From a virus, in IMG/VR virus record IMGVR_UViG_3300045988_075530, positions 1 through 38,580 of that record: DNA of 38,580 nt; one strand, written 5' to 3'. Below, piece by piece: positions 6,168 to 34,780 of the stretch (positions are counted from its first letter, which is position 1; each line of letters opens with the position of its first letter). The notes beneath the pieces are model-generated. The model was not told the DNA's origin. It worked only from the letters and a program-made list of their open reading frames with translations, and searched no databases. The position numbers and the translations under genes were made by a program.

Positions 6168-7526
6168 ATGTATTTATCATATCAAGATTTCATTGCCGCA
6201 AAAGACAAAGGGCAATTTATAAATCAGTTTATAAAATTCCACGAGAGTACAGAAGCATACAAAGAGGCGTTAAAAGCGGACAAGTACGATGCACAGGAAA
6301 ACGAGACTATTTTACAGTTCCAGCGCGTCTATTACACTTTGTTGGGTCAGAAAAAGATAGATAATTTTTCGTCTAACGCACAGATATGCTCTAATTTCTT
6401 TCACAAATTAAATACACAGCGCTGTTCGTACAGCCTGGGAAACGGTGTCTTTTTTAATGACATGGGTGTCAAAGATAAACTAGGCAAACAATTCGACAGA
6501 CGGATTAAAGAGGCGGCTTACAACGCATTAATTCACGGTCAATCTTTCCTTTTTTGGAATGTAGACCACGTGCACGAATTTCCCCTTACGCAGTTCGCCC
6601 CGATGTGGGACGAGGACACAGGGGCGTTGATGGCGGGCATAAGATTCTGGCAACTGGACGAGCAGAAACCATTTAAGGTTGTGCTGTACGAAGTAGACGG
6701 CTACACAACCTACAGCGCAAAAAGCAAATTTGGAGAATTAAAAGAGACCGCTCCTAAACGAGCATACAGGCAAAGAGTTGAGGTTGCTAATAATTTGGAA
6801 CCCGAAATCATCGGGGAAGAAAATTATAGTTCCCTCCCTATTGTGCCGATGTTTGGCAACAAAAGGCATATAAGCACCTTGAGGGGGATGCAGTCAAAGA
6901 TTGATGCTTACGATGCGGTGCAAAGTGGTTTTGCCAATGATTTGGACGACTGTGCACAGATGTATTGGCTCATTTCCAATGCTGACGGTATGACAGATGA
7001 TGAGCTGGCGGAGTTTAGAGACCGGCTCAAGTTTCAGCATATCGCAAAGGCCGAGGAAGGGCAGGTACAGGCATACACACAAGAGCCGCCGTATACCGCC
7101 AGAAAAGAGTTTCTCACGCAGATGCGGTCAGAAATTTATGAGGACTTCGGGGCGCTGGATGTACACACCATAGCCGCCGGAGCAACAAACGACCATATCG
7201 ACGCGGCATACCAGCCACTAGACGACAATGCAGATGATTTTGAGTACTTCGTAGGCGATGCGATTGAGAAAATTCTGGAGCTTGCGGGGATTGATGACGA
7301 ACCGCAATTTAAGCGGAACAGAATCAGTAACGAGAAAGAGCGTACAGATATGATTCTTGAGGCAGCAAACTATCTGGACGAAGAAACCATCCTAAAAAAA
7401 TTACCGTTTGTCGCACCAGAGGAAGTGCCGGACATTTTGGCAAAGCTAGACGAAGAATCATATAACCGCTACACGGAGCCGATTGAACCCGATGCGCCGG
7501 AAGATATCCCGGAAGGGGATGAATAA
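6168..7526 (+). CDS. Portal protein (SPP1 gp6-like)
   Basis: It directly follows terL, is about 450 aa, and has a highly acidic C-terminus. ATG 6168 (alternative GTG 6159). Confidence 0.85.
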   Translation: MYLSYQDFIAAKDKGQFINQFIKFHESTEAYKEALKADKYDAQENETILQFQRVYYTLLGQKKIDNFSSNAQICSNFFHKLNTQRCSYSLGNGVFFNDMGVKDKLGKQFDRRIKEAAYNALIHGQSFLFWNVDHVHEFPLTQFAPMWDEDTGALMAGIRFWQLDEQKPFKVVLYEVDGYTTYSAKSKFGELKETAPKRAYRQRVEVANNLEPEIIGEENYSSLPIVPMFGNKRHISTLRGMQSKIDAYDAVQSGFANDLDDCAQMYWLISNADGMTDDELAEFRDRLKFQHIAKAEEGQVQAYTQEPPYTARKEFLTQMRSEIYEDFGALDVHTIAAGATNDHIDAAYQPLDDNADDFEYFVGDAIEKILELAGIDDEPQFKRNRISNEKERTDMILEAANYLDEETILKKLPFVAPEEVPDILAKLDEESYNRYTEPIEPDAPEDIPEGDE

Positions 7527-27865: not shown

Positions 27866-27902
27866 TATAATATAATTACTTCTCCTTTATTTCTATCATG
27901 TT

Positions 27903-27958
27903 TTGTTATACGGTAACTGACCTTAACCCGGTGGTTTCGGCTAGTTACTGTATAACAA
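27903..27958. other. Candidate attP core for the serine integrase (56-bp imperfect dyad)
   Basis: ttgttatacggtaact ... agttactgtataacaa gives 15/16 inverted arms around a 24-bp centre that is itself partly symmetric (aacc cggt ggtt). It lies 4 bp from the integrase stop and has no flanking T-run. Confidence 0.5.
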
Positions 27959-27961
27959 AAA

Positions 27962-29299
27962 CTAAAAAAATATAATATCCTCCACGTAAGTGTCGGGGGA
28001 TATTTTTATTTCTTTTACAATGCTTTTCCAAAACACCTGCTTGTCTTGTTCACCTAACTGCATATACATATCTTTCCAACCGTCAGGAAATCTGCTTTGT
28101 ATTTTTTTCTTAGTTTCTAGTTCTTCCGTTGCGGCGGTCTGGGATAGTTCTTTTAATTCCTTTGATATAGCCTCATATCTTTCGTCATAGTATTCTTCTG
28201 TTATCCTACCTTTTTCAAACATTTTATTAATTCTTCCCAACTCGCTGGATAATTTTTTCTTTCTCTTTTCCGCATCGTTTCCGCCTGCCTTCACACGACC
28301 TTCTACCCTTAATACATCTAACTGTATTTTTTCTTCGATGTGATTGAGCATATATGTTTCTAATTTTTTTTCTGATCGCGTGTAGGTCTTGTGCTTTTGT
28401 GCGACAGAGTGGGGGCAGTGATATACTTTGTACTTTTTTCCTTTTTTGCCTATTGCACACCCGGAAAGCCTGCAACCGCAAATCGGGCATTTCATCAAGC
28501 CGGAGAAAATGTAAATACGCCTCCTGCAATCTGTCCAAGTTTTTTGGCTGGATACTTCGTTGATTTTTTGCGCTTGCTCCTCTGTGATGTACGGTTCACA
28601 GTAGTTTTTTACTCCATACATTTCGCCGCGATAAGCTGGGCTAGACATAATCTTAACCAACCTCGTTCTGGTTCTTACAAAATCAGGGTATTTACTTAAA
28701 ATATAGTCGGCGGTTCCTGCTTTTGAGAATGTCTGGAAATAGTGCTCAAACATATCCTCAATTATTCCTCGCGTCTTTTCGTCTTTTACAATCTTTTTCC
28801 CTTCTATGCGATAACCTACCGGCACTTTTCCGCCAATATATTCCTTGTTGTTCCGTTTGAATTCCATAACAGACCGTATTTTCTCACTGTCCCTGTCTGC
28901 CTCCGCCTGCGCTACGGACAGCATAATATTTACTTTAAATATTCCCTGACTTGTCTCCGTCTCATAATCCTCCCAGATAGCCCTCCAAGGCACTTTACAC
29001 GCATCAAGGACACTTTGTACCTCATAATACCCTGCAACAGCTCTAAACCACCTGTCAAGGCGTGTGAAGAGTATTATATCAATCTCGTGTTTCTTGCAAT
29101 CCTCAAGTAACTGCAAAAGGGCAGGGCGTTTTGTGTATTTTTTACGTGCAGATATGCCGGCATCGTTATAAATACCAGCAACCGTATATCCTTGCTCTTC
29201 ACAATATTTTTCAAGCGCATCTATCTGCGAATCAACGGACAATCCACTGTTCTTCTGCTCTTGCGTGCTTACTCGCACGTATAAAGCGGCTCTTTTCAT
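27962..29299 (-). CDS. int: Large serine recombinase (integrase)
   Basis: The N-terminal resolvase domain is AALYVRVSTQEQ (catalytic Ser). It has a recombinase domain, a zinc ribbon (CPICGCRLSG...YHCPH) and a coiled-coil C-terminus. Confidence 0.95.
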   Translation of the reverse strand: MKRAALYVRVSTQEQKNSGLSVDSQIDALEKYCEEQGYTVAGIYNDAGISARKKYTKRPALLQLLEDCKKHEIDIILFTRLDRWFRAVAGYYEVQSVLDACKVPWRAIWEDYETETSQGIFKVNIMLSVAQAEADRDSEKIRSVMEFKRNNKEYIGGKVPVGYRIEGKKIVKDEKTRGIIEDMFEHYFQTFSKAGTADYILSKYPDFVRTRTRLVKIMSSPAYRGEMYGVKNYCEPYITEEQAQKINEVSSQKTWTDCRRRIYIFSGLMKCPICGCRLSGCAIGKKGKKYKVYHCPHSVAQKHKTYTRSEKKLETYMLNHIEEKIQLDVLRVEGRVKAGGNDAEKRKKKLSSELGRINKMFEKGRITEEYYDERYEAISKELKELSQTAATEELETKKKIQSRFPDGWKDMYMQLGEQDKQVFWKSIVKEIKISPDTYVEDIIFF

Positions 29300-29306
29300 T
29301 TATTTC

Positions 29307-29335
29307 CCTTCCTGCCTTCGTACCTCCGGGGCGGG
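29307..29335 (-). repeat. GC-rich leader element type B, copy immediately upstream of the integrase start codon
   Basis: The reverse complement is identical to 31505..31533 over 29 nt. Confidence 0.9.
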
Positions 29336-29344
29336 TGCTGCTAT

Positions 29345-30013
29345 CTACATACAACTAAGCCTGTCTATTAGCTTTTTTCTAAGCTTTTCGTATTTCTCGG
29401 TTATTTCTTCACTATCCGGAAAGTTAACCAAGCGAAAACAAGCATTTTCAAATTCGTTAACCAATGCTATGTTTTCGTATCTTTTTAATTCTATAGCTTT
29501 TTGCGGCAAATCGTCATAAAAAACTTTTAAATCGACACCTAGAGCGCCTGCGATTTTTGATAAGGTCTCTACCTTTGGCTTCTTTTTTCCGACTTCGTAC
29601 TGGTAAATCATGGCAGCTGAAACACCTAGACATTTAGCAAGTGCCGCCTGTGAAACTCCCTTTTGTAGGCGCACAGTTTTGATTTTTTCTCCTATCATTG
29701 ACAAAGTTACATCTTCTAATGCTTTTTCTATTGCATTTCGGCACTGTTCTTGGTTAAAATCTTCGACACCTTCATATTCTCGACTTGGTACGGTATCAGC
29801 GAAAGTGTAAAAGTATGGCTCGCCGCTTTTTGTGTAATTATATCCAAGATTTAAAGCGGCAGCAAGTTTGGCTACTGTATCTTTCTTCGGATTTAATTTC
29901 CCGTATTCATAGCGTTGAATGGTATATGTCGAAAGTCCGCTTTTTTTACCAAGCTCTTCTTGCGTTAACCCCTGCCTTTTTCGCGCTTGTCTTAATCTAT
30001 CTGAAAAACTCAT
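29345..30013 (-). CDS. Tandem XRE-type HTH protein (two HTH_3-like domains)
   Basis: HTH 1 is LRQARKRQGLTQEELGKKSGLSTYTIQRYEYG. HTH 2 is IKTVRLQKGVSQAALAKCLGVSAAMIYQYEVG. It lies upstream of and co-directional with int. Confidence 0.85.
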   Translation of the reverse strand: MSFSDRLRQARKRQGLTQEELGKKSGLSTYTIQRYEYGKLNPKKDTVAKLAAALNLGYNYTKSGEPYFYTFADTVPSREYEGVEDFNQEQCRNAIEKALEDVTLSMIGEKIKTVRLQKGVSQAALAKCLGVSAAMIYQYEVGKKKPKVETLSKIAGALGVDLKVFYDDLPQKAIELKRYENIALVNEFENACFRLVNFPDSEEITEKYEKLRKKLIDRLSCM

Positions 30014-30031
30014 AATTTTTTCACCTCTCTA

Positions 30032-30115
30032 TATCTCCTCTCTTGATTTAATCATATTGTACATGATAATGACTATTATGTCAAGAAAAAAATACACGAA
30101 AATATATTATTTTTT
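30032..30115. repeat. Left arm of an 84-bp inverted repeat (78/84 identical to 30415..30498); contains a leftward promoter and shared 5' UTR
   Basis: Aligned by hand. On the minus strand it reads TTGACA-17-TACAAT followed by taaatcaagagaggagata. Confidence 0.9.
30056..30084 (-). promoter_or_regulatory. Near-consensus sigma-A promoter (TTGACA-17-TACAAT) driving the tandem-HTH gene and int
   Basis: It is the reverse complement of the right-arm promoter. The spacer contains the palindrome cataatAGTCattatg. Confidence 0.7.
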
Positions 30116-30352
30116 ATATTCTACGATGTCGCACACCTGGCAGTCCAATTTCTCGCACAAATACATAATTGTATCTATATTCACGTTCCTGTCGTGCCGC
30201 AGCTTGTTGACCAGTGCCGGGGAAAGATTAAAACTTTCCTTATCTAATAGGTTAGAACGTTTTAGCCCTCTACGTTCTAGTGTGTCCCATAAATTACTAT
30301 ATGAGATGCTACCTTTATATATGTTACTTCTTTTTCTTGCTCGTGTTTCCAT
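30107..30352 (-). CDS. Small XRE/HTH_26-like regulator (81 aa) lying between the inverted promoter copies
   Basis: SYSNLWDTLERRGLKRSNLLDKESFNLSPALVNKLRHDRNVNIDTIMYLCEKLDCQVCDIVEY. SD aaaggaggc is present. Confidence 0.8.
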   Translation of the reverse strand: METRARKRSNIYKGSISYSNLWDTLERRGLKRSNLLDKESFNLSPALVNKLRHDRNVNIDTIMYLCEKLDCQVCDIVEYKK

Positions 30353-30414
30353 TTAAAAAGCCTCCTTTAATCGTTATAAATATATAGTACATTATTTTGA
30401 AATAAATATCAAGA

Positions 30415-30498
30415 AAAAAATAATATATTTTCGTGTATTTTTCTCTTGACATAATAGTCACTATCGTGTATAATGTGAGTAAATCAAGAGAGGAGATA
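30415..30498. repeat. Right arm of the 84-bp inverted repeat; contains a rightward promoter and shared 5' UTR
   Basis: Aligned by hand against the reverse complement of 30032..30115. Confidence 0.9.
30446..30474 (+). promoter_or_regulatory. Consensus sigma-A promoter (TTGACA-17-TATAAT) driving the 30506-32193 operon
   Basis: Exact consensus hexamers with a 17-nt spacer. Confidence 0.8.
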
Positions 30499-30505
30499 CA
30501 AAGAA

Positions 30506-30955
30506 ATGAAAAAATACAATTTATCAAACATTATGAAAAGAGCATGGGAGTTAGTTAAAAAGGCAGGTCTTTGCATCTCCGAAGGATTGAAATTAGCATG
30601 GAAGGAAGCAAAGAACATGGGAGAAACAATGGAGGAAAAGCTTATCCGCCTTGGCTATAAGGTGTGGGAGAAGGGCGATATGAAACGTATCTATATTAAT
30701 GACTTTCAGAAATATTTGGAAGTCGAAGAAACTAATACGCCAGCAGCAATGGGACGTGGAAGAATCATTAATGGCATCTGCACAGATGAATATAAAAGCT
30801 TTGCACAGCGTCAAGCATTAAACCTTGTTGACTGGGGATTTGGAGCTAAATTGTATTACGACTGTAAAAAAGAAGACTGGTTTTGTAAGAATCCAGGAGG
30901 AAGTTTAATTAAAAAAATCCTCTGGACAGTTGCCGATAAATTAGAAGTGTTATAA
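30506..30955 (+). CDS. Hypothetical protein (149 aa)
   Basis: First gene after the consensus promoter. SD agaggag is present. Confidence 0.7.
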   Translation: MKKYNLSNIMKRAWELVKKAGLCISEGLKLAWKEAKNMGETMEEKLIRLGYKVWEKGDMKRIYINDFQKYLEVEETNTPAAMGRGRIINGICTDEYKSFAQRQALNLVDWGFGAKLYYDCKKEDWFCKNPGGSLIKKILWTVADKLEVL

Positions 30956-30961
30956 TAAATA

Positions 30962-30995
30962 CCCGCCCGGCGGCGGAACCGCCGGAGAAAGAAGG
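30962..30995 (+). repeat. GC-rich intergenic leader element type A (hairpin ccggcgg/ccgccgg followed by agaaagaagg)
   Basis: acccgcccggcggcggaaccgccggagaaagaagg. A related copy lies at 31172. Confidence 0.8.
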
Positions 30996-31000
30996 AAAAT

Positions 31001-31162
31001 ATGACAGCAGAAGAAAGAAACAAGTACATAGAGTTTATGTACGATTATAAAAATGAATATAATTGTGAAAATTGCCCGGAAAATAGAGGGGATTTTCCGC
31101 ATGACAGATTACCTTGCGGACAACAAAATTGCTGGGTAACCTGCCACTGTAAGGAGATGTAA
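31001..31162 (+). CDS. Small Cys-rich protein (53 aa)
   Basis: Translation is MTAEERNKYIEFMYDYKNEYNCENCPENRGDFPHDRLPCGQQNCWVTCHCKEM. It is preceded by a type A element and is below the track cutoff. Confidence 0.55.
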   Translation: MTAEERNKYIEFMYDYKNEYNCENCPENRGDFPHDRLPCGQQNCWVTCHCKEM

Positions 31163-31171
31163 ATATTATTA

Positions 31172-31205
31172 CCGCCCGGCGGCGAATTCCGCCGGAGAAA
31201 GAAAG
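31172..31205 (+). repeat. GC-rich intergenic leader element type A, second copy
   Basis: ccgcccggcggcgaattccgccggagaaagaaag. Confidence 0.8.
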
Positions 31206-31221
31206 ACGAGGAGAAATTATC

Positions 31222-31497
31222 ATGTTAGGAATTTTAAGAAAAGAATTAGTAGGAAATATAGTATCATTTTATGAATTAGACGAAATTATGACAGAGTTCG
31301 GGTGCCCTTCCGAACTGGACTGGATAAACGATGAGGGCGCGTGGGATGATGTTTTAAAGGATAAAAATATCTTTTATAAAGTTCCTGATTCTGACGACCA
31401 TTTTGCAATTTCTTTTGAAATTGAAAGCGAGTACAATTCGGAGGAAGAAAGTGCAGATTGCACACTTGTTAATATCGTTAATATAGAGGTTCAGTAA
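31222..31497 (+). CDS. Small highly acidic protein (91 aa)
   Basis: By my count, 23 D/E against 5 K/R. Confidence 0.7.
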   Translation: MLGILRKELVGNIVSFYELDEIMTEFGCPSELDWINDEGAWDDVLKDKNIFYKVPDSDDHFAISFEIESEYNSEEESADCTLVNIVNIEVQ

Positions 31498-31504
31498 TTA
31501 AATT

Positions 31505-31533
31505 CCCGCCCCGGAGGTACGAAGGCAGGAAGG
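31505..31533 (+). repeat. GC-rich leader element type B (29 nt), identical to the integrase leader 29307..29335 on the opposite strand
   Basis: cccgccccggaggtacgaaggcaggaagg. Confidence 0.9.
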
Positions 31534-31541
31534 AAGAAAGC

Positions 31542-31934
31542 ATGAAAAAGTATAACATATATAAAGCTACACGAGAGATTAAGGATAGAGACATTTCAGA
31601 AATAGTGCAGGGGTGTACATTTTTTTGCGATGGTGTTTCTGAAGAATTAATAAAATCTTGTGATACACTAGAAGAAGCAAAAGAAGTCTTGGCGAAATAT
31701 AAGACAGATATTACAGCTTACGGCGGGTGTTATCTGGTTACAGAATACTATGTTCTGCCAGAAATCTATGACGAAGATGGCGAAATTGTAGAATCTGGAG
31801 ATATCGAAGAGATTACTAAAATGAAAATCGGTGTCGAAGATGAAGATTGGAATGTTGTAAAAACATTTGACAATCTAAAAGAGGCGGACAATTTTATACA
31901 TAGTGACGAAAGAGAATTGACGCTGATTTATTAG
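31542..31934 (+). CDS. Acidic protein (130 aa)
   Basis: By my count, 32 D/E against 15 K/R. It is preceded by the type B element. Confidence 0.7.
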   Translation: MKKYNIYKATREIKDRDISEIVQGCTFFCDGVSEELIKSCDTLEEAKEVLAKYKTDITAYGGCYLVTEYYVLPEIYDEDGEIVESGDIEEITKMKIGVEDEDWNVVKTFDNLKEADNFIHSDERELTLIY

Positions 31935-31953
31935 GATGAAAGGGGGAAATGGT

Positions 31954-32193
31954 ATGCAAAAATTCAATAAAAGGAGAAAACTAGATAGATTCTTAGCCAC
32001 TTTGCCTGAGGGCATGGTTTTTAAGTCAAATAATGAGTTTAGGATAAAAATGCCAAACGGATATATTAGTATTGGATATTATTACCATGATTATCATGCA
32101 TTTGGGGGACATCGTAATTCTGAATACAATACTATACAAGAAAACATAGATGCAGTAAAAGAACTTATTGACAAATACGGTAAAGGGGAGTAG
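31954..32193 (+). CDS. Hypothetical protein (79 aa)
   Basis: ATG 31954 lies 7 nt after aaaggggga. The track start at 31936 lacks an SD. Confidence 0.6.
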   Translation: MQKFNKRRKLDRFLATLPEGMVFKSNNEFRIKMPNGYISIGYYYHDYHAFGGHRNSEYNTIQENIDAVKELIDKYGKGE

Positions 32194-32290
32194 GATATAG
32201 ATAAGGTTTTTAATAGCTCCATTTTGGGATGTAAATGTTAGCTTAGTTTTGTACCTTAAAAACATTAATAGTTCCATTCTGGAAGGCAAA

Positions 32291-32316
32291 GCACTTGTTT
32301 CGACAGGTGCTTTTTT
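32291..32316 (+). terminator. Terminator of the rightward accessory operon
   Basis: Stem gcacttgt / acaggtgc is followed by tttttt. Confidence 0.65.
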
Positions 32317-33103: not shown

Positions 33104-33152
33104 GCATAAATGTAAATTTTATATCATATAATTAAACAAAAACAGAAAATAC

Positions 33153-33198: not shown

Positions 33199-33315
33199 AT
33201 GGAAGAAAGAAAAAAAGAAGAGATTCTAAAAGAAATTTTTACTCTCTTAGAACCTCTCCCTAAATTAAAATTAATAAAGATTTTAGTTTACGTCAAAGTA
33301 CTGTTTTACTCCTGA
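33199..33315 (+). CDS. Possible 38-aa peptide (MEERKKEEILKEIFTLLEPLPKLKLIKILVYVKVLFYS)
   Basis: SD gagggaggg lies 5 nt before the ATG. Its 3' end overlaps the CI-like gene convergently by 10 nt. Confidence 0.3.
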   Translation: MEERKKEEILKEIFTLLEPLPKLKLIKILVYVKVLFYS

Positions 33316-33665
33316 GTCGAAGCTAAAAAATCTATTAATTTGCTGACGGTCAACTTGTTTTCCTCATTAAGTTGACCGTATCTTTTCAAAAGGTTGGCTT
33401 CTTGCGTTGCTTTCAAAATGGCAGAGTTTTCAGTTTCGTCCTTGTCTTCCTCGTCCCAACCCGTAAGCGTTGCTGGGGCAATGCTTAAAGCGTCAGCAAT
33501 TTTTTTAATCATTTCGGCATCTACACGCTTGATACTTCCAGCTTCATACTTCTGCACAGTAGCCTCGGTTATTCCTATTTTCCCACCAAGTTCCCTGAGC
33601 GTCATTCTTTTCTTTTCCCTGTAAAACCTAATGTTATTTCCAACCTTTGTTGTAAAATCGCTCAT
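33306..33665 (-). CDS. CI-like XRE-family repressor
   Basis: IRFYREKKRMTLRELGGKIGITEATVQKYEAGS. It is divergent from the cro-like gene across an operator-containing region. Confidence 0.85.
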   Translation of the reverse strand: MSDFTTKVGNNIRFYREKKRMTLRELGGKIGITEATVQKYEAGSIKRVDAEMIKKIADALSIAPATLTGWDEEDKDETENSAILKATQEANLLKRYGQLNEENKLTVSKLIDFLASTQE

Positions 33666-33696
33666 TTCTTAATTCACCTCCTTTCGTATATATACT

Positions 33697-33779
33697 ATCA
33701 TATTATGAAAGAAAATCAATACAAAAATAAAAAAAACTTTCACAATATGCTTGACAACTTTCATAATATGATATATAAT
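33697..33779. promoter_or_regulatory. Lysis-lysogeny switch: divergent promoters with three TCATA-N-TATGA-type operators
   Basis: 33697-33711 (atcatattatgaaag) is the exact reverse complement of 33758-33772. A degenerate third site lies at 33737-33750. PR is TTGACA(33751)-17-TATAAT(33774). Confidence 0.75.
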
Positions 33780-33828: not shown

Positions 33829-34029
33829 ATGAATCTTTCCAAGTTAAGAGGAATGATTGCGGAAAAAGGGCAGACTTATAAAGGATGTGCTGCCGCAATT
33901 CATGTTAGCCCACAGACATTTACAAAAAAAATGCGCGGCGCGACAATATTCGACATTGAAGAGGCTAATAATTTAGGTGATTTTCTTGAAATGACAGGAA
34001 AGGAAAAAATAGATATTTTTTTATCCTAA
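33829..34029 (+). CDS. Cro-like small regulator
   Basis: First gene of the rightward operon, 66 aa, SD aaaggagg. Confidence 0.5.
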   Translation: MNLSKLRGMIAEKGQTYKGCAAAIHVSPQTFTKKMRGATIFDIEEANNLGDFLEMTGKEKIDIFLS

Positions 34030-34081
34030 AACTATCATGATAAGAAAGTGATTTATCATAATAAGAAAGGATGGTGACTAG

Positions 34082-34780
34082 ATGAAAAATATTCAAATCT
34101 TCGAAAACAATGAGTTCGGTTCAATTCGGACTCAGATAATTAATGACGAACCGTACTTCTGCTTAGCGGATGTTTGCCACGCATTGGACCTTGAACAACC
34201 TAGCAGAGTCAAATCAAGGTTAAAACCCGATGGGGTTACTACTGGTATGGTCATCGACAGCGTGGGCAGGAGACAAAATGCAAACTTTGTGAATGAACTC
34301 AACCTTTACAAAGTAATCTTCCAGAGCCGCAAAGAAAGTGCAGAACGCTTTACTGACTGGGTAGCCGGAGAAGTTCTTCCATCCATCAGAAAGACAGGAA
34401 GCTACCAGAAACAGTTATCCCCTCAGGAAATGATGCGTATTCAGTTAGGCATGATAGACGACCACGAAGACCGCATAAAGAACCTTGAGAGTAACATGGT
34501 AATTGACTATGGGCAACAGCAAACACTGCGACAGCACGTCAATAAAGCTGTTTTAAATGCATTAGGTGGCAAGGACACAGAAGCATATGCATATATCAGC
34601 AAAGTTGTATTCGCAGAGTGTAACAGGGATTTGCAAGACAGATTTAAAGTTAACAGCCGAAACAATATCCCTCGCAAACGCTATGAGGAAGCTATTGACT
34701 ATGTAGACAACTGGGAACCGAAAACAAACACAAAGTTAAGAATTGACGAATATAACCGTCAACAGAGATTCGAGGTGTAA
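34082..34780 (+). CDS. Antirepressor (Bro-N / ORF6N N-terminal domain with a KilAC/ORF6C-like C-terminus)
   Basis: IQIFENNEFGSIRTQIINDEPYFCLADVCHALDL is a typical Bro-N start. Confidence 0.85.
   Translation: MKNIQIFENNEFGSIRTQIINDEPYFCLADVCHALDLEQPSRVKSRLKPDGVTTGMVIDSVGRRQNANFVNELNLYKVIFQSRKESAERFTDWVAGEVLPSIRKTGSYQKQLSPQEMMRIQLGMIDDHEDRIKNLESNMVIDYGQQQTLRQHVNKAVLNALGGKDTEAYAYISKVVFAECNRDLQDRFKVNSRNNIPRKRYEEAIDYVDNWEPKTNTKLRIDEYNRQQRFEV

Follow-up and report, generated by a model that had tools for sequence, protein, structure and literature searches.

An inverted promoter–leader duplication around a small HTH_26 gene forms a candidate two-way expression node in temperate gut phages

We analysed a 38,580-nt stretch of viral DNA (IMG/VR virus record IMGVR_UViG_3300045988_075530, positions 1 to 38,580; hereafter the window), the genome of a temperate siphovirus-like phage of gut origin. 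The subject of this study is an inverted duplication in which two near-identical promoter–leader units face outwards from a gene for an 81-amino-acid (aa) helix-turn-helix (HTH) protein of the HTH_26 family, one unit directed towards a large serine integrase and the other towards an operon of small accessory genes, here called the cargo operon. We propose that this element is probably a conserved, self-regulated two-way expression node. The layout, its conservation among relatives and the co-occurrence of a 16-bp dyad with the regulator gene are observed, and from them we infer promoter activity, DNA binding, repression and timing.

The arms of the inverted repeat lie at 30015–30115 and 30415–30515. 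A repeat search combined with our own alignment gave arms of 101 nt that are identical at 91/101 positions and stand 299 nt apart, with exact runs of up to 28 nt in common. An earlier description made without database searches (the sequence-only reading) had recognised an 84-bp repeat at 30032–30115 and 30415–30498; its 78/84 identities were re-derived by alignment, and the true repeat extends to 101 nt. Nothing comparable is found nearby: the next-longest inverted repeat between 28 and 33 kb is 35 nt at 71% identity, and the next at 90% identity or better measures 29 nt. Both arms carry the elements that the sequence-only reading had listed, namely an A/T-rich block, TTGACA, a 17-nt spacer, a −10 box, an identical leader and a Shine–Dalgarno (SD) sequence. 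The conserved block ahead of TTGACA reads AAAAAATAATATATTTTCGTGTATTTTT in each arm, and the 19-nt leader TAAATCAAGAGAGGAGATA, which includes the SD, is the same in both.

The cargo-side arm, P_C (30415..30515, plus strand), comprises a near-consensus promoter (−35 at 30446–30451, −10 at 30469–30474), the leader, the SD and the ATG, at 30506, of the first cargo gene, ORF149 (open reading frames, ORFs, are named here by their length in aa). Its TTGACA-17-TATAAT core (30446–30474) agrees with the sigma-70/sigma-A consensus at 12/12 positions. On the minus strand, the integrase-side arm, P_I (30015..30115), has its −35 at 30084..30079 and a TACAAT −10 at 30061..30056, followed by leader and SD, and scores 11/12 (TTGACA-17-TACAAT, 30084..30056). 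The outer end of the repeat passes the SD and on the right reaches the start codon of ORF149; the right copy, as had been read, faces into the 30506–32193 operon. The matching position of the left arm, the ancestral start codon, is GTG, which opens a four-codon ORF, GTG AAA AAA TTA TGA (30013–30027), whose TGA overlaps the ATG of a tandem-HTH gene at 30013; judging from this stop/start overlap, the mini-ORF may be translationally coupled to that gene. That the left copy leads to the integrase was also borne out by relatives: at loci L054 and L055 the arm leader leads directly into int, which lies about 50 nt further on, and at L005, L013 and L022 arm and int are separated by no more than a stub of the tandem-HTH gene. 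No terminator-like site was predicted between P_I and int in the window. We regard the two outward-facing promoters with their shared leader as a candidate for a distinct co-regulating node, much as first suggested.

Between the arms lies the HTH_26 gene (30352..30107, minus strand; Cro/C1-type, Pfam PF13443, E = 2e-9), whose product we propose as the repressor acting on P_I, P_C and the promoter of the gene itself. The only solved relative of this protein is PDB 3TYR. The intervening 299 bp had been described as holding this gene and nothing else; the gene is indeed there, its last codons falling inside the left arm, and the segment additionally contains the promoter of the gene, P_hth (30412..30384, minus strand; TTGATA-17-TACTAT, 9/12 against the consensus), back-to-back with P_C. 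P_hth resembles the arm promoter at 74% identity and represents a third, diverged copy of it; among 104 relatives it is nearly invariant.

To place the element among related phages, we used an exact-pattern scan with the promoter core, which retrieved 70 IMG/VR contigs, and a protein-guided scan that added more, leaving 107 distinct related gut-phage loci after removal of duplicates. The same structure occurs in GenBank MT837225, a 96% identical relative, in ~100 IMG/VR contigs and in chimpanzee-gut prophage contigs whose HTH protein is 88% identical; given this recurrence, it is neither a chance feature nor an artefact. The sequence-only reading had raised a recent rearrangement or an assembly artefact as an alternative, to be settled by whether relatives keep the duplicated promoter. 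They do: the arm/HTH_26 gene/arm cassette is present in 107 loci, with both arms found wherever both flanks were available, and conservation on this scale rules that alternative out. The arms are separated by a constant 298–299 nt, while the length of the repeat ranges from 60 to 211 nt.

Diversity within these loci is distributed unevenly. The HTH gene is represented by 63 alleles with a mean dS (synonymous divergence) of 0.41 and dN (non-synonymous divergence) of 0.004 relative to the window (dN/dS ~0.01), and four-fold-degenerate sites in the gene have a diversity of 0.22. In the cargo-side arm, diversity falls to 0.003 in the −35 box, 0.02 in the −10 box and 0.03 in the distal dyad and surrounding block, and the same elements of the integrase-side arm give 0.05–0.11. 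The arms are therefore 2–10 times less diverse than four-fold sites, whereas the 5 nt that follow the −10 box show a neutral-like diversity of 0.37–0.44. By these sequence comparisons, the repeat and the node are conserved and under selection.

The link between regulator and arms comes from a 16-bp dyad, ATACA-N6-TGTAT, that recurs beside HTH_26 homologues. The motif was derived from the loci of these homologues and matches were accepted at up to one mismatch. Dyads lie just upstream of homologues at 61–88% identity and often just after their stop codons: five at L074 (four upstream and one just after the stop), four around the gene at L168, four at L169, four at L084 and one, within the promoter spacer, at L081. 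Every HTH_26 homologue of at least 61% identity has a dyad beside it, and the two that lack one are only 33–34% identical, the level of the only HTH relatives returned by a scan of genome contigs. In loci outside the motif derivation (L171, L173, L175/L176, L177 and L178), we counted 13 matches in the 1,920 nt adjoining the gene against 0 in the other 13,285 nt, although the upstream regions of L175/L176 resemble that of L074 and are not fully independent. L177, with a 57% identical HTH protein, has no match at one mismatch but a two-mismatch site in the same register. That register is constant among the homologues: the first bases of the −10 box are shared with the TGTAT half, and a second dyad often lies ~34 nt upstream, as illustrated by TTGACAATTAGTACACAAAGATGTATAAT at L074 and by TTGACATATGATACACAAAGATGTATAAT after the stop codon at L168, with its second dyad ~34 nt upstream. 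Homologues at 57–68% identity reside in Enterocloster-like prophage regions without the long inverted repeat. Within the family loci, dyads reach a density of 4.1 per kb in the cassette versus 0.2 per kb elsewhere.

The arms of the window each contain two dyad-like sites in corresponding places, one near −52 and one running across the spacer into the −10 box. The distal site (30423–30438 in P_C, 30107..30092 in P_I) is ATATATTTTCGTGTAT in both arms, with one mismatch; a T-to-C variant common in the family removes this mismatch in 39 integrase-side arms. The proximal site reads AGTCACTATCGTGTAT in the right arm (30456–30471, two mismatches) and AGTCATTATCATGTAC in the left (30074..30059, three mismatches). 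In the chimpanzee prophage L084 the proximal dyads are perfect in both arms, and the two arms have derived changes in common; its 88% identical HTH protein differs at ten residues, including one in the recognition-helix region, and its arms are 95% identical to each other versus ~86% to those of the window. Concerted evolution of the arms is seen only in this more distant lineage. The sequence-only reading had placed the operator in a cataat-N4-attatg palindrome. This did not hold up: the right arm lacks the full ATAAT-N4-ATTAT dyad that the left arm has, and the family is polymorphic at one base of it. Its proposal of the 81-aa protein as a regulator fared better: from the co-localisation of dyad and gene this protein appears the best candidate, in keeping with the logic of Aca-like autoregulation, and it is most likely the shared repressor of P_I, P_C and P_hth, acting via the dyads.

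Two palindromes of related type lie inside coding sequence. A perfect ATACA-N6-TGTAT at 28312–28327, within the int ORF, is kept in 62 relatives, and an ATACA-N4-TGTAT palindrome at 30161–30174, within the HTH ORF, covers the codons of an invariant DTIMYL motif. Both may be by-products of coding constraint.

We propose the following course of events. One sigma-A-type promoter with its leader and SD would have been duplicated in inverted orientation around an HTH_26 repressor gene, in an event that originally also spanned the first ~37 codons of a gene. In the present arrangement, P_I would transcribe the resident cassette, here the tandem-HTH gene, and then the serine integrase; P_C would transcribe the set of small accessory genes; and the weaker P_hth would drive the repressor gene, reading through towards P_I. 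On entry into a cell the repressor would be absent and both consensus promoters would fire, so that cargo, integrase and, here, the tandem-HTH protein are made. As the 81-aa protein accumulates, it would bind the dyads on both arms. The distal dyad site of the right arm is positioned between P_C and P_hth, and by being common to the two it would allow both operons and the repressor gene to be throttled together. The node would act independently of the phage's CI/Cro pair.

Several observations weigh against this scheme. The proximal dyad of the window is degenerate, with 2–3 of its 10 specified bases off, and the distal site may be no more than an A/T-rich UP element (a promoter-upstream element). 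Motif counts across the whole window are not significant (31 sites versus 21.5 expected at up to two mismatches, 3 versus 1.4 at up to one), and within the close family variants of the HTH protein do not co-vary with variants of the arms, so the case for the operator draws on co-localisation across families. Nor is there concerted evolution in the close family, where arms of the same genome are as alike (0.885) as arms of different genomes (0.889). The 70 loci retrieved by pattern inflate the apparent conservation from −35 to −10 in one arm per locus. Finally, MT837225 (L001, 5195–5461) has an in-frame deletion of 84 nt that removes the helix-turn-helix from the HTH gene, and the database variants P0006 and P0007 have smaller in-frame deletions in the 81-aa gene. 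The regulator can thus be lost, at least transiently.

Such a deletion in a 96% identical relative keeps alive a simpler explanation, in which the arms are twin constitutive promoters of the moron type, switched on in the lysogen, the A/T block is an UP element and the HTH_26 protein regulates itself or some other target. Consensus promoters need no activator, and the weak proximal dyad of the window fits this account as well. Constant expression of int would be tolerable, since a serine integrase by itself does not excise the prophage. The account is harder to reconcile with the recurrence of the dyad, at an unchanged register, in the promoters that adjoin distant HTH_26 homologues, with a regulator gene that is inseparable from both arms in 107 loci, and with conservation upstream of the −35 box that is base-specific (TTTTCGTGTAT) and goes beyond mere A/T richness. 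We regard it as unlikely.

The arms might instead answer to another repressor: the tandem-HTH protein, through autoregulation of P_I, or else the CI/Cro pair of the phage. The integrase-side arm of the window does have a dyad of its own, ATCAT-N7-ATGAT, which is centred on the −10 box and missing from the cargo-side arm, and this haplotype travels with the 222-aa tandem-HTH cassette, a link that may be plain physical linkage. The tandem-HTH gene is, however, an interchangeable, facultative cassette found in only ~34/107 loci (clusters 17 and 21), about a third of the relatives, while both arms are always present; we therefore rejected it as the general regulator, a role in which the sequence-only reading had considered it. 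As for CI and Cro, CI-type operators of the form CTTTCATAATATGATA occur at 33696, 33737, 33758, 34033 and 34054, and none was found in the arms at up to three mismatches. The genes cI, cro and those for replication occupy 33.3–36 kb, where the operators differ from the arm dyads, and the earlier view that the node is separate from the CI/Cro switch agrees with this placement of five CI operators around 33.7–34.07 kb. Control of the arms by another repressor is accordingly quite unlikely. Three of the CTTTCATAATATGATA copies lie between cI and cro (33696–33773) and two, with 2–3 mismatches, just upstream of the gene at 34082 (34033–34069); a further, weak copy is located near the DUF4352 gene (33122–33137).

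A third possibility is that the repeat persists only as a scaffold for recombination, a homologous junction at which cassettes are swapped, with no selection for identical regulation. Much of the comparative picture is consistent with a junction. Gene content beyond the arms is combinatorial among relatives, and flanking sequences diverge at the outer ends of the arms; mosaic breakpoints fall at arm ends and inside the leader. Besides the direct arm-to-int layout and the tandem-HTH stubs described above, the integrase side may hold an intact tandem-HTH gene followed by int, or a 102-aa gene, a 127-aa gene and a zinc-ribbon protein followed by int, or several other combinations. The same cassettes are seen on both sides of the node (families N36-b, o160, o40, o205 and o56), the length of the repeat is variable, and the other arm has likewise received a copy of the 29-nt int leader. 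At L049 and L056 the repeat extends to 206–211 nt at 96–98% identity and takes in the initial ~37 codons of two paralogous genes, which share the module MKKYNLSNIMKRAWELVKKAGLCISEGLKLAWKEAK and then diverge; the window's 101-nt repeat is by this comparison the conserved core of an older duplication of promoter, leader and gene start. In our own scheme, too, the arms double as common 5′ junctions for cassette exchange, both between phages and between sides. What a scaffold leaves unexplained is the base-level purifying selection on −35, −10 and dyads relative to synonymous sites, and a junction role is compatible with, rather than exclusive of, the two-way node. As the whole explanation, it seems to us quite improbable.

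The regulator allele itself can be exchanged, as the layout of L177 (503–911) suggests: there, the family's integrase-side arm comes after an HTH_26 allele of 57% identity, while the promoter ahead of that allele is a different one.

The sequence-only reading had also allowed that the repeat might invert the HTH segment. An invertible switch, in which recombination between the arms flips the 299-bp segment, could draw on the 101-nt repeats with their exact runs and on the serine recombinase gene nearby, yet it is extremely improbable: in 73/73 loci the HTH gene has the integrase on the same side, flipping would rewire neither outward promoter, and the only recombinase, the large serine integrase, has its own attP (phage attachment site) at 27901–27960. 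The inverted orientation was not seen in any assembly, although minorities might exist at read level, and a scan of metagenomes for the inverted junction, for which there is no denominator, gave a single match that proved to be a normal-orientation locus with an N36 gene on the int side. A transposon-like element was rejected on three grounds: the repeat has no fixed outer ends (60–211 nt), the unit encodes no transposase, and HTH homologues at or below 68% identity lack the repeat.

The leftward operon begins with the tandem-HTH gene (29345..30013, minus strand), which encodes a 222-aa RstR/XRE-like protein with two HTH_3 domains, and ends with the gene for the 445-aa large serine integrase (27962..29299, minus strand; Resolvase and Zn_ribbon_recom domains, phrog_95). 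Directly upstream of the ribosome-binding site (RBS) of int lies the G+C-rich 29-nt int leader (29307..29335, minus strand), which is invariant in 78/78 int-bearing relatives. Its perfect inverted second copy (31505..31533, plus strand), situated before the RBS of ORF130, is present in only ~10 relatives. Neither the two arm leaders nor the int leader folded better than shuffled sequence (z −1.1 to +1.3), and an Rfam scan of 27.5–34.5 kb gave only matches below gathering scores, all of them away from the arms and their vicinity. Just 3′ of int, a 60-bp imperfect palindrome (27901–27960) represents an intact attP. The chimpanzee prophage L084 (~6846–6900) is collinear with the window up to the centre of this palindrome (...AACCACC) and then continues into a host sigma-70 gene located after dnaG. 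The sigma-70 ORF, broken at the junction, ends ...KFSTYATWW/LWLVTV and a stop codon (the slash marking the break), which places attB (the bacterial attachment site) within its region-2 codons and indicates that integration truncates the sigma gene.

The cargo operon (30506..32193, plus strand) comprises ORFs of 149, 53, 91, 130 and 85 aa and closes with a terminator-like hairpin and T run (32288..32313, plus strand). To its right follow the DUF4352 gene, cI (33306–33665) and cro (33829–34029). The cargo proteins had no family match in Pfam, PHROG, NCBIfam or PADLOC, and no recognised anti-defence gene was among them. ORF149 has 573 database homologues, a few of them with a Pfam match, to Phage_Gp111; those listed carried no functional name. 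Its AlphaFold model is confident (pLDDT, predicted local distance difference test, 88.8) and matches only uncharacterised viral proteins, with no PDB fold match at E ≤ 0.001. The 36-aa N-terminal module MKKYNLSNIMKRAWELVKKAGLCISEGLKLAWKEAK (30506–30616; L049 9608–9818 and 10118–10328) is joined to at least three unrelated C-terminal parts, occurs on either side of the node and weakly matches the start of Pfam Phage_Gp111 and of phrog_28198.

In the literature, we found nothing relevant on an inverted duplication of identical promoters around a phage regulator. The nearest functional parallel is with Aca-controlled acr operons, in which the gene of a small HTH protein neighbours a strong promoter for rapidly evolving small accessory genes, this promoter is overlapped by dyad operators, and negative feedback limits an otherwise excessive early burst (PMC6765145, PMC9410906). 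The present system likewise has an HTH regulator physically linked, in 107 loci, to candidate target promoters and to accessory genes. It departs from the Aca pattern in that the regulator is not the last gene of an operon but sits, with its own promoter, between two mirror-image target promoters, that one target operon ends in an integrase, and that the cargo has no match to a known anti-defence or defence family. Geometrically, the closest relative is the lambda immunity region, PL/OL–cI–OR/PR, where int is part of the leftward transcription unit. Here, too, the repressor gene stands between outward promoters with related predicted operators, and int belongs to the leftward unit. Unlike lambda, in which only 17-bp operators are alike, whole promoter–leader units of 101–211 nt are near-identical, and the node does not control lytic genes, which fall to the separate CI/Cro switch at 33.7 kb with its different operators. 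By analogy, the node thus appears to resemble Aca-controlled acr operons in function and the lambda immunity region in geometry.

Three further comparisons are instructive. Invertible segments of the Hin/Gin/Cin and fim type have inverted repeats that flank a short segment near a recombinase gene. Inverted repeats flank a segment in the node as well, but its promoters lie in the repeats and not between them, no alternative orientation is seen, and the repeats are not short recombinase sites. In mosaic temperate phages, conserved non-coding junction or "linker" sequences bound exchangeable modules; here, by contrast, the junction is a promoter–operator–leader unit present twice, inverted, in one genome. 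Archaeal viruses reuse one conserved early regulatory sequence before variable anti-defence genes, and that sequence can serve as a search handle (PMC11065993). They belong to another domain of life and use another type of promoter, whereas in the present phages, where one strong promoter sequence likewise recurs ahead of several variable accessory genes, the copies number exactly two and mirror each other at fixed positions on either side of the regulator. The mirroring of a whole promoter–operator–leader around a regulator, with one arm ending in an integrase, is distinct from the Aca, lambda and archaeal systems.

A broader and more tentative possibility, which we consider less likely than not, is that a large family of gut Clostridia phages has in this node a dedicated bidirectional, self-limiting expression platform, whose invariant promoter–operator–leader docks interchangeable establishment or anti-defence cassettes on both sides and couples their early burst to integrase expression. 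If so, these phages would possess a second immunity-like circuit that works apart from CI/Cro, and unknown accessory genes could be sought by way of the promoter–dyad signature together with the HTH_26 repressor. As a site of cassette shuffling, the node offers a clear natural example of a regulatory sequence that serves as a recombination junction. It would also show a temperate phage coupling its integrase and a variable set of accessory genes to one small repressor, and its signature of consensus promoter, ATACA-N6-TGTAT dyads and HTH_26 gene could guide searches of uncultured gut phages for accessory or anti-defence cassettes.

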